The notes under the pieces were generated by a model. That model had not been told where the DNA came from and ran no database searches. It saw only the letters and a list, made by a program, of their open reading frames with translations. From positions 3,743 to 67,742 of the forward strand of contig DATLCC010000102.1 of NCBI GenBank assembly GCA_035526585.1: 64,000 bases of DNA, written 5' to 3'. This DNA is from Thermoplasmatota archaeon. GTDB taxonomy: Archaea > Thermoplasmatota > SW-10-69-26 > JACQPN01 > JAJPHT01. Below, one piece after another: positions 38,441 through 40,636 of the stretch (within the stretch, counting starts at the first letter, position 1; each line of letters begins with the position of its first letter). The position numbers and the translations under genes are program-made.

Positions 38441-38450
38441 CTATATAACC
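38441..38450 (-). promoter_or_regulatory. TATA box candidate for the rpo7 operon
   Basis: Minus strand GGTTATATAG, the only AT-rich patch in this spacer, about 95 nt upstream of ATG 38347. Confidence 0.35.
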
Positions 38451-38570
38451 GTTTGTCGGGCGAGGGCGCGGACTCGGGCGCGGGGTGGGGGCGGACGAGG
38501 GCGCGGAAGCGGCCGGCCCGCTCCCCGCCGCCCGCGTCCCGCCCCGCGCCCGCTTGCGCGCCCGCGCCCG

Positions 38571-39524
38571 TCACGGGCGCGACCGGCGCGCCAGCAGCGC
38601 GCCGATCGCGCGCGTGATCGGAAGCCCCGTCGCGTCCTCCAGCCAGAGCCACGCGGGCTCCGAGTTCGCTTCGAGGAAGACGTACTCGTCCTGGGGCGTG
38701 CGGATGAGGTCCACGCCGCTGTAGTCGAGCCCGCAGTCCTTCACGATCGCGGCGCACGCGCGCCGTACGGGCGCGGGGAGCTCCAGCTTCGTGTAGCGCA
38801 TCCCCTCCTCGTAGTGTCGCCAGTCGATACGCGTGCTCTCCTTCTCCTGCGAGTGGATCTCGACGGCGAACACCTTCGCGCCCACGACCGTCGCCCGCAC
38901 CTCGGTCCGCTTCTCCACGTACTCCTGCGCGAGCACCGGCGCGAGGCGCACGCTCTCCGCGTCGCTGATATCGTTCGAGGTGACGCGGCTCGTGAGCACG
39001 CGGCGCGACTCTGGCACGCCCGCGCTGCCGCTCGGAGATTTCACGGCCGCCGCGCGATGCTTGCGCACGAACGCGCGGAACTCCCGGGGGTCGCTCGTGA
39101 GGAGCGTCTCGGGGATCGCGAGCCCCCGCTCGCGCGCGAGGCGCAGCTGGAGCAGCTTGTCGCTCGAGGCGAGCGCGCGCCACGGATCGTTGACCCACGC
39201 GAAGCCGTGCGCCTGGCGCAGAGCCACGAGGCCCGCGATGGCGGCCGCGCGGGCGAAAGGGCGGGCGGCGCGCGCGAGCCCGGGCGCGAGGCGCACGCTC
39301 TCCGCGGAGGAGAACCAGCCGACCTTCGTCTCCGCCAGGTCGAGCGCGCCGATCCTTGCCCGCACCGGACCGCGCGGCCCGAGCGCCACGCTCAGGGTGG
39401 AGGAGGCGGGAAAAAGGCGAGGGTCGAGCACGCGCGGCTCGAGGCCGTGGCGCGGGAGCTCGTCGCAGAGCGCGACGACGTTGGGGTGGTCCGGGCGGCC
39501 CAGGAGGAGCGCGTGCCGATTCAT
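38571..39524 (-). CDS. MdnC/MvdD-like ATP-grasp ligase (candidate graspetide macrocyclase)
   Basis: 318 aa from ATG 39524. Blocks KLLQLRLARERGLAIPETLLTSDP, EVRATVVGAKVFAVEIHSQ...RIDWR, YSGVDLIRTPQDEYVFLEANSEPAWLWLE resemble the RiPP ATP-grasp family (from memory). Confidence 0.75.
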   Translation of the reverse strand: MNRHALLLGRPDHPNVVALCDELPRHGLEPRVLDPRLFPASSTLSVALGPRGPVRARIGALDLAETKVGWFSSAESVRLAPGLARAARPFARAAAIAGLVALRQAHGFAWVNDPWRALASSDKLLQLRLARERGLAIPETLLTSDPREFRAFVRKHRAAAVKSPSGSAGVPESRRVLTSRVTSNDISDAESVRLAPVLAQEYVEKRTEVRATVVGAKVFAVEIHSQEKESTRIDWRHYEEGMRYTKLELPAPVRRACAAIVKDCGLDYSGVDLIRTPQDEYVFLEANSEPAWLWLEDATGLPITRAIGALLARRSRP

Positions 39525-39622
39525 TGGCCTTCGTTCTTGATGGTCTCGCGATCGAAGGTGGCGCCGGCCGGACCGCGCGGGGTGGGCTCGGAGCGGGCGT
39601 AGAGGAAGGGCGTGCGCTTCAT
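39521..39622 (-). CDS. Candidate graspetide precursor peptide (33 aa), not in the ORF track
   Basis: ATG 39622...TGA 39521: MKRTPFLYARSEPTPRGPAGATFDRETIKNEGQ. ATGA overlap with the ligase start. G/C-rich third positions. PFLYAR leader-like motif and a T/D/E/K-rich C-terminus. Confidence 0.6.
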   Translation of the reverse strand: MKRTPFLYARSEPTPRGPAGATFDRETIKNEGQ

Positions 39623-39645
39623 GCAAGGAGCCTCAAGACCGTCAG

Positions 39646-39653
39646 GATAGTAA
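39646..39653 (-). promoter_or_regulatory. Possible TATA-like element upstream of the precursor ORF
   Basis: Minus strand TTACTATC, centred about 28 nt upstream of ATG 39622. Confidence 0.2.
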
Positions 39654-39675
39654 GAGCGTGTCGATAGGCCCGCTC

Positions 39676-40005
39676 CTACATCGAGGCCGGGCGCTTCGAC
39701 ATCGCCTCGATGTCGACGCTCTGCCAGGTCATCGAGGGGCCGAACTTGGCTTCGCTCGACTGCGGTTGGCTGACCCAGGTCTTGCTGTTGCCGCGCGTGA
39801 GGATGCCTCGCGAGTCGAGGAGCTCGAGGAGCGCGGCGACGTCGTCGGGGCGCATGTCGTCGCTCTCGATGCTGACGCTCACGTGGCGGTCCTGCCCGTT
39901 CTCGTCGTAGCGGAAGAGGACGCTCACCTGGTTGTCGCTCGCCTTCGCCGTGTCGACGTTCTTGAGCTTGCGACCCAGCTTCAGCTTGGTCTCGTACTCG
40001 GCCAT
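39676..40005 (-). CDS. Hypothetical protein (109 aa)
   Basis: ATG-initiated, charged, no family recognised. Visibly less GC-rich than its neighbours. Same strand, immediately upstream of the precursor/ligase pair. Confidence 0.55.
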   Translation of the reverse strand: MAEYETKLKLGRKLKNVDTAKASDNQVSVLFRYDENGQDRHVSVSIESDDMRPDDVAALLELLDSRGILTRGNSKTWVSQPQSSEAKFGPSMTWQSVDIEAMSKRPASM

Positions 40006-40051: not shown

Positions 40052-40636
40052 TCACGCCGGAACCGGGCGCACCCGGATCGTCCCGGTGCCCGTCCCCTGG
40101 CCGGAGAACTCGACGGTCCAGTCGCCCGGCACGACCGCGCCGCCGGTCGCCGTGCCGGCCATAGTGACGCCGCAGTGGACGTTGGACGGGTCGCCGGTCC
40201 CGGTCGAGGGCGCGGCGAAGGCGTCCGCGTGCGTCGAGCCGTCCGGGCGCTTCACGACCGCGTGCATCGGGCCGGCGCATGCGTACCCGGTGAGGGTCGT
40301 GCCGGGTTGGAAGTCGATCACGACCTCGAGCTGGACCGTGTTGTTCGGGATGGTGAACGTCTTCGTCTCGCCGGCCGTCGCGTAGTCGTGCGTGACGTTG
40401 AGCCAGAACGTCCCTGGCGGGGTCGGCACGGGCGGCGCCGGCGTGGACGCGGGCGTCGTGTTCGTCGGCTGCGGCGTCGGCACCGTCGTCGGCGTGGGCG
40501 TCGGCTCGGGCGTCGCGTCGGGGGTCGGCGACGCCTCGGGCGTCGAGGTGACCGGGGGCGTCGTCGTGCCGGCGGGCTTCGCGCAGCCGCTCACGAGGAG
40601 CGCGAGCACGAGGATCGAGGCGAGGACGACGCGCAC
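40052..40636 (-). CDS. Lipoprotein with Pro/Thr-rich linker, hypothetical
   Basis: MRVVLASILVLALLVSGC lipobox, a PT-rich stretch of about 60 aa, then a beta-rich domain. Confidence 0.7.
   Translation of the reverse strand: MRVVLASILVLALLVSGCAKPAGTTTPPVTSTPEASPTPDATPEPTPTPTTVPTPQPTNTTPASTPAPPVPTPPGTFWLNVTHDYATAGETKTFTIPNNTVQLEVVIDFQPGTTLTGYACAGPMHAVVKRPDGSTHADAFAAPSTGTGDPSNVHCGVTMAGTATGGAVVPGDWTVEFSGQGTGTGTIRVRPVPA

Follow-up and report, generated by a model that had tools for sequence, protein, structure and literature searches.

Graspetides, the omega-ester- and omega-amide-containing class of peptides that are made by the ribosome and modified after translation (RiPPs), are matured by ATP-grasp ligases. 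Among the described systems are those for microviridin (group 1), in which the precursor MdnA is acted upon by an ester ligase (MdnC) and an amide ligase (MdnB), and plesiocin (group 2; precursor PsnA2, ligase PsnB). Graspetide precursors bear the leader signature 'Phhx(1,2)h', the microviridin leader motif is PFFARFL, and co-variation of leader and ligase has been reported (PMC8939145). In the ligases, a D(F/W)R loop (D233-F-R235 in PsnB) is largely conserved and essential, and a conserved and likewise essential active-site Arg (PsnB Arg213) recognises the ring-forming carboxylate (PsnB paper). ThfB is a single ligase that introduces two ester cross-links into a leader-bearing precursor (PMC12291112), and surveys published earlier record graspetide groups composed of ligase and precursor only. 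Here we describe a locus in a 64,000-nucleotide stretch of contig DATLCC010000102.1 (the whole of which is referred to as the window) from a Candidatus Thermoplasmatota archaeon of soil, uncultured, where a 33-codon open reading frame (ORF) directly precedes the gene for an ATP-grasp ligase. We consider it likely that the two genes form a minimal graspetide cassette.

Judging from the sequences, the peptide–ligase pair is very probably a previously undescribed graspetide family in Thermoplasmatota, and the graspetide interpretation is supported at the level that computation can reach. The features on which it depends are the following.

39521..39622, minus strand: precursor peptide gene, 33 codons and a stop, MKRTPFLYARSEPTPRGPAGATFDRETIKNEGQ, from the minus-strand translation and its conservation
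39521..39524, minus strand: ATGA stop/start overlap, putative translational coupling of peptide and ligase
38571..39524, minus strand: ATP-grasp ligase of the graspetide-macrocyclase type, 317 amino acids (aa), 954 nucleotides (nt) including the stop
39599..39610, minus strand: leader motif P5-F6-L7-Y8 (consensus PFL[YF]), putative ligase-binding element
39524..39559, minus strand: putative core T22-Q33, TFDRETIKNEGQ, with a presumed leader/core boundary
38817..38825, minus strand: D234-W235-R236 loop of the ligase, D(F/W)R motif, invariant in 23 family ligases
38895..38897, minus strand: R210 in the E208-V-R210 strand of the ligase, candidate carboxylate-recognising Arg (PsnB Arg213)

A conserved peptide gene upstream of the ligase

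The small ORF had been proposed in a preliminary description of the window, at 39622..39521 on the minus strand. Its translation was re-read identically as MKRTPFLYARSEPTPRGPAGATFDRETIKNEGQ, and its TGA (39523-39521) overlaps the ligase ATG (39524-39522) to form the ATGA junction noted there. The G/C-rich third codon positions were also recovered (G+C fraction at third positions, GC3, 0.88). The ORF by itself is not above chance, and a GC3 of 0.88 alone carries no weight either. The window is 70% GC, and the ORF listing has 61 ORFs of at least 25 aa overlapping the 7-kb stretch around the locus. Because short open frames abound at such a composition, the reality of the small ORF rests on its conservation.

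The cassette was seen in 11 distinct places including the window, for 10 of which DNA is available, and in all 11 the ligase is immediately preceded, on the same strand, by an ORF of 33–41 codons that follows the same pattern. The short PF-motif ORF whose recurrence the preliminary description had proposed as a check was found in 10 of 10 related places examined, and gene callers had annotated it in most of the related contigs. Pairwise comparison of the last 15 codons in nine loci gave 97 synonymous to 100 non-synonymous codon differences in the frame of the peptide, in comparison to 27:180 and 21:185 (approximately 1:7 to 1:9) in the two shifted frames. Purifying selection thus acts at the codon level and is confined to the peptide's frame; the small ORF is a real, conserved protein-coding gene. 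A ligase extended at its N-terminus (TTG at 39626, 351 aa) was rejected, as the N-termini of the homologs align at the ATG and one related locus (L165) has a stop in the ligase frame within the peptide region, which therefore is not an N-terminal ligase extension there.

Of the 10 cassettes for which there is DNA (that of the window included), 7 have the 4-nt ATGA overlap, and short spacers separate the genes in the other three. In 9 of 9 aligned loci (window 39524-39541, minus strand), E31 is encoded by GAA and Q33 by CAA, despite a GC3 of ~0.9; a locus outside these nine (L169) uses CAG for Q. The fixity of GAA and CAA suggests a constraint at the nucleotide level, either coupling or a ribosome-binding signal ('GAAGG') for the ligase start.

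A peptide profile built from nine members was searched against 5.8 billion clusters and returned 30 called proteins of 34–50 aa, with E values from 1e-19 to 3e-7. Residue conservation was counted over 34 distinct family peptides, for which the consensus is PFL[YF]..E....A-T-[FY]-x-R-E-T-x-K-N-E-G-Q-stop. Residues P5, L7, E12, A21, T22, E26, K29, G32 and Q33 are invariant in 34/34, and F6, F23, R25, T27, N30 and E31 are conserved in at least 90%; positions 24 (D/G/Q/N) and 28 (I/V/T) are variable. The leader motif, with P5 and L7 invariant and F6 nearly so, fits the 'Phhx(1,2)h' signature and is similar to the microviridin motif (PMC8939145), and the likeness of PFLYAR to PFFARFL noted from the window alone extends through the conserved PFL[YF] to the whole family.

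The putative core consists of two tandem TxxxE pentads (T22-F-x-R-E26 and T27-x-K-N-E31), together with the invariant K29 and a C-terminal G32-Q33. Thr and Lys donors and Glu acceptors, the residues expected of a graspetide, are therefore conserved within it. From the residues previously listed as donors and acceptors, T22, E26 and K29 proved invariant and T27 and E31 at least 90% conserved; D24 is variable and is not a conserved ring residue. The departure from the microviridin core TxKxPSDx(D/E)(D/E) that had been pointed out also characterises the family, the core of which reads TF[DGQN]RET[IVT]KNEGQ.

Two peptide subfamilies can be distinguished, one of 33–39 aa ('PFLYARxE...GATF') and one of ~41 aa ('PFL[YF]RH[VA]ED.PRETGP.ATFQRET'), which track two ligase subclades wherever both genes of a locus are known. 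This pairing agrees with the leader–ligase co-variation reported for graspetides (PMC8939145). None of the 34 peptides has a family match in Pfam or NCBIfam. When 1.84 billion representatives were searched exhaustively with the profile, six clusters were returned, all already collected; no new relatives were brought in, and the peptide family is therefore small and confined. The sole extra match of that search (P0223) was discarded as a repetitive artefact.

Class, fold and motifs of the ligase

The ligase is 317 aa in length rather than the 318 aa first given, and the three sequence blocks quoted for it are all present. In Pfam the only match above cut-off is to the generic RimK ATP-grasp domain (5e-9). 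The best-scoring curated NCBIfam model is TIGR04187, for an ATP-grasp ribosomal peptide maturase (1e-56 and 192 bits over the full length), with lower scores for MvdC (6e-43, 147 bits), MvdD (1e-40, 140 bits) and the grasp-with-spasm maturase (3e-21, 76 bits). The models for rimK_fam (TIGR00768; 4e-18, 65.7 bits) and LysX (TIGR02144; 4e-8, 32.8 bits) miss their cut-offs of 143.4 and 275.6, respectively, and glutathione synthase reaches 21 bits (1e-4). Against the Protein Data Bank (PDB), phmmer returned AMdnB, MdnC, CdnC and MdnB as the top four (1e-28 to 1e-26), the whole series with PruB and PsnB extending from 1.5e-28 to 6e-15; the value for RimK is 6e-8.

A model of the ligase was calculated with AF2 from 23 family members (predicted local distance difference test score 88, predicted template modelling (TM) score 0.85). 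The top 32 chains identified with this model by Foldseek are all graspetide macrocyclases (MdnC, AMdnB, CdnC, PruB, PsnB and MdnB), with TM scores of 0.68–0.85 over ~320 columns, versus 0.64–0.71 for RimK, LysX and ArgX. The scores for MdnC, AMdnB and CdnC amount to 0.83–0.85. The D234-W235-R236 loop aligns to the DWR of MdnC, MdnB, AMdnB and CdnC. Similarly, E208-x-R210 is invariant in the 23 relatives and aligns to the 'ELR' of the same four enzymes, which by position makes R210 a candidate counterpart of PsnB R213.

Approximately 23 related ligases (46–69% identity) were collected, all from metagenomes or metagenome-assembled genomes (MAGs). The close relatives group as a single clade in a neighbour-joining tree, among other ATP-grasp homologs, many of which have PF21068 (the MvdD pre-ATP-grasp domain) and a few of which are named MvdC or MvdD, and the clade lies far from the RimK outgroup. 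DNA pattern scans of metagenomes and genomes gave 2 + 1 close loci, corresponding to two distinct contigs, the remainder being distant bacterial graspetide loci. The distant bacterial homologs adjoin textbook precursors, such as PFFARFL...TLKYPSDRDE (L004) and ...ETTDDE (L088/L102). The classification by profile and structure that had been proposed as a check, RiPP ATP-grasp models against those for RimK, LysX and GshB, is accordingly answered by 140–192 versus at most 66 bits and by the 32 macrocyclase chains; profiles, PDB search, Foldseek and tree all agree with the earlier view of an enzyme like MdnC/MvdD rather than RimK or LysX.

Proposed chemistry and competing explanations

In the mechanism that we propose, both genes would be transcribed from a TATA-like promoter ~30 nt before the peptide ATG and would be translationally coupled. 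The ligase could dock on the leader through PFL[YF], as MdnC does on PFFARFL, and with ATP would phosphorylate the side-chain carboxylates of E26 and E31. The hydroxyl or amine of T22, T27 or K29 would then attack the resulting acyl phosphate, with the loss of 18 Da per ring. One or two rings are expected, because the core has only two conserved acids. Possible pairings are T22-E26 with T27-E31, T22-E31 with K29-E26, and T22-E26 with K29-E31; our preferred guess is the first, a tandem of lactones, in which K29 would be free, or might form a lactam replacing one of the esters. The distance from E12 to T22 varies (10–11 residues among the 34 peptides), and for this reason E12 is assigned to leader recognition. 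Leader removal and export might be provided by unlinked functions, or neither may happen. By analogy with microviridin and marinostatin one could speculate that the product inhibits proteases, its specificity residue being K29 or R25.

Several observations weigh against a graspetide cassette. The conserved core offers three nucleophiles for two acids, so that the ring pairing is not fixed by the sequence, and neither the strictly conserved terminal G-Q nor the conserved R25 is accounted for by the proposed ring chemistry. The 3' conservation GAA GGN CAA TGA may in part be a ribosome-binding or coupling signal rather than a reflection of peptide function. No protease, exporter or tailoring (acetyl- or methyltransferase) gene recurs in the related neighbourhoods examined; the preliminary description had remarked that no acetyltransferase or dedicated exporter is adjacent here. 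The ligase meets none of the NCBIfam cut-offs for RiPP maturases (192 against 350 bits for TIGR04187, 147 against 425 for MvdC, 140 against 475 for MvdD), and since all scores fall below the curated cut-offs it stands outside every named NCBIfam subfamily. It has no match to PF21068 at E <= 1, and its close relatives (P0001-P0023) are without this domain as well, unlike the bacterial relatives; despite this, the structural alignments to MdnC and AMdnB cover ~320 columns, which is the whole ligase.

The graspetide reading can be taken further, although we regard the following as tentative and rather doubtful. The family could be at home in uncultured soil Thermoplasmatota and so far limited to them, with a new ring topology in a 12-residue core (tandem i,i+4 Thr–Glu lactones, or an ester and a Lys–Glu lactam). 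A two-gene cassette that needs neither exporter nor protease would suffice to make the product, which would possibly act within the cell, for example by inhibiting an archaeal protease.

The alternative that survives best, which we nevertheless consider unlikely, is that the small protein serves as substrate or carrier in a ligation of the RimK/LysX type, in which amino acids are attached to a Glu side chain or to the C-terminus as in S6 and LysW, with no macrocyclisation. The sole Pfam match above cut-off is indeed the generic RimK domain, RimK, LysX and ArgX come next in structural similarity (TM 0.64–0.71), the locus lies among housekeeping genes, and N-E-G-Q is always terminal and conserved, as if the C-terminus were the site of the chemistry. 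The RimK and LysX models nonetheless score far below those for RiPP maturases, and the P-h-h leader motif and D-W-R loop are graspetide traits. LysW is marked by a Cys/zinc-ribbon and an EDWGE-type tail; the peptide has neither, and no genes for lysine or arginine biosynthesis are adjacent in the window or in the related neighbourhoods.

Somewhat less probable still is an upstream ORF that is translated solely for coupling or regulation, with a ligase that acts on another, unlinked substrate. The ATGA overlap and the GAA-GGN-CAA before the ligase start could reflect a constraint on translation initiation, and no other components of a biosynthetic gene cluster are present. Such a constraint does not explain why, across 34 sequences, 9–15 residues in both leader and core are invariant and third positions change synonymously, nor the co-variation of peptide subfamilies with ligase subclades, and the peptide is unchanged in three cassettes that have no overlap. 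Finally, a chance ORF conserved through a non-coding element of the ligase gene (5' untranslated region (UTR) or RNA structure) is very improbable and effectively refuted by the codon differences and peptide alignment, for while spurious ORFs are plentiful at 70% GC, the synonymous bias is specific to one frame, length varies only by multiples of three and within the N-terminal part, an ATG start is present in all loci and an AT-rich box upstream in most, and the profile search returns only same-frame peptides as called genes.

Setting of the locus and comparison with known systems

The neighbours vary between the contigs of related loci, and the conserved unit is therefore peptide and ligase alone. 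As the preliminary description held, the window cassette sits among archaeal housekeeping genes (S27ae, S24e, DUF359, Spt4 and Rpo7). Only L165 has the H+-pyrophosphatase and a Thr/Pro-rich protein in common with the window. The latter is a 194-aa lipoprotein-like protein (window 40052-40636, minus strand; L165 2738-3295; 36% identity). Encoded downstream of the gene for the H+-pyrophosphatase in both contigs, it has a hydrophobic N-terminal segment, a Cys and a Thr/Pro-rich linker. The 109-aa ORF at 39676-40005 (minus strand) lies on the same strand, as had been stated, and is an orphan unrelated to the cassette: neither Pfam nor NCBIfam gives it a match, and none of the related loci has a homolog, the syntenic L165 included. 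It was for these reasons rejected as a partner or alternative precursor, and may have been inserted between the cassette and the lipoprotein-like gene.

Neighbours seen once include a divergent GNAT (L166 2039-2557), a cyclophilin-type peptidyl-prolyl isomerase directly after the ligase (L164 1458-2417), and InhA-like MAM and S8-like peptidases on the contig of P0096. These could be accessory in single loci.

With respect to the host, the aspartyl-tRNA synthetase of the window is 100% identical to a protein of a 'Candidatus Thermoplasmatota archaeon' MAG at NCBI, its nearest relatives are so labelled, and a partial family ligase (P0024) is labelled Thermoplasmatota. A cassette at 59% identity is found on JAJPHT010000020.1 (L001/L161), titled 'Proteobacteria bacterium Centralia_MAG_189', where Trm1-type, PRC-barrel and AsnC genes are among the neighbours; this MAG or contig probably carries the wrong label and comes from an archaeon.

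Two further features flank the cassette.

39647..39653, minus strand: AT-rich TATA-like box TTACTAT, 25–31 nt upstream of the peptide ATG, putative dedicated promoter
38460..38570, minus strand: long GC hairpin directly 3' of the ligase stop

An AT-rich patch ~20–45 nt before the peptide ATG is visible by eye in most related cassettes, in DNA that is otherwise ~70% GC, and suggests a dedicated promoter with a short or absent 5' UTR. The hairpin, of ~50 bp, has two arms, the first a G run and the second a C run (minimum free energy -100.2 kcal/mol, z = -4.9, with 0/200 shuffles as stable). A comparable hairpin follows the ligase only in L164 and not in other loci, which makes it doubtful that it is part of the cassette; it is possibly a 3' end or an insulator before the rpo7 promoter. 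A strong TATA-like element of archaeal type, GGTTATATAGG, lies at ~38441-38451 (minus strand) of the window, ~95 nt upstream of the rpo7 ATG (38347), and suggests that the rpo7-spt4-S24e-S27ae operon has its own promoter, apart from the cassette.

To our knowledge, very few archaeal RiPPs have been characterised. The preliminary description knew of no characterised archaeal graspetide, and we likewise found none; archaeal loci had, however, already been predicted. In the tables of Makarova 2022, ligases are given for Methanoculleus, Methanolacinia, Methanosarcina and a DPANN archaeon; the group 7 precursor (Methanoculleus/Methanolacinia), ...TKKADIETGEDLKGE, is unrelated to the PFLY family. 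In the RODEO analysis of Carter 2026, group 36 is given as 'only in Thermoprotea' and group 33 is from Methanolobus; according to its supplement (PMC13097080, Figs S10 and S13), the group 33 precursor is peptidyl-tRNA-hydrolase-like and that of group 36 is Cys-rich, with 61 aa. The predicted precursors of both groups are doubtful. We presume that the Cys-rich 61-aa protein resembles a zinc-ribbon carrier of the LysW type, and groups 33 and 36 are possibly not RiPP systems. YcaO, radical SAM, lanthipeptide and lasso classes are listed in a survey from 2025 that covers 11,644 archaeal genomes and leaves graspetides unmentioned. The core and leader strings of the present family are absent from the searchable supplement text of Makarova 2022 and Carter 2026, an absence that is no proof; the core motif had no match in curated models or in searchable literature text.

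The core is near-invariant although the ligases diverge to ~47% identity, which implies a specific and conserved target, and such a target may reveal unrecognised physiology or ecology of Thermoplasmatota. With one peptide of 33 aa and a single enzyme of 317 aa, both easily synthesised, the family is a minimal test case that can tell whether archaea produce graspetides, what ring pattern a T-x3-E-T-x-K-x-E core adopts and by what means so short a leader is bound. If the more far-reaching reading given above is confirmed, this would be the first experimentally tractable archaeal graspetide. Small cyclases with short leaders are also of value for peptide engineering.

Compared with the known systems, RimK-S6 and LysX/ArgX-LysW have the ATP-grasp fold in common with the locus and, for LysW (3vpb, ArgX-LysW), a small substrate encoded nearby. 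They differ in the much lower profile and structure scores and in substrate features of the S6/LysW type, which are absent here, and these enzymes ligate amino acids rather than cyclise. The SAV_5884-type maturases described by TIGR04187, which we take to be graspimiditide ligases such as ThfB of fuscimiditide, provide the best-scoring model, yet its 192 bits fall well short of the cut-off of 350. No PIMT-type or other methyltransferase is present in the window or in the related neighbourhoods examined, unlike what would be expected of that type, and the archaeal core is far shorter than that of fuscimiditide, too short for a stem-loop of 4–15 residues. With plesiocin the locus has in common the ligase fold (TM 0.72–0.78 for PsnB), the D(F/W)R loop, a candidate active-site Arg and a hydrophobic leader anchor. 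The plesiocin core, in contrast, is a repeated TTxxxxEE hairpin, where here a single copy has the order T, E, T, K, E, and sequence similarity to PsnB (6e-15) is much weaker than to the closer MdnC-type matches.

The nearest system is microviridin. By fold and by sequence the ligase is nearest to MdnC and AMdnB, both systems have the DWR and ExR motifs, and in each case the gene directly upstream of the ligase encodes a short precursor with P-F-[FL] in its N-terminal leader and Thr/Lys/Glu in its C-terminal core. Unlike microviridin, there is one ligase and not two in all loci, with no recurrent GNAT or ATP-binding cassette transporter (a GNAT only in L166), the precursor is 33–50 aa in length, the host is archaeal, and the MvdC/MvdD equivalog cut-offs are unmet. 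The archaeal loci predicted earlier resemble the present one in their host, in the pairing of an ATP-grasp enzyme with a small adjacent ORF and, for some, in a position amid housekeeping genes; none has the PFLY...ATFxRETxKNEGQ pattern. The pair is thus best described as a new graspetide group, specific to Thermoplasmatota on present evidence, and not as a new kind of system.

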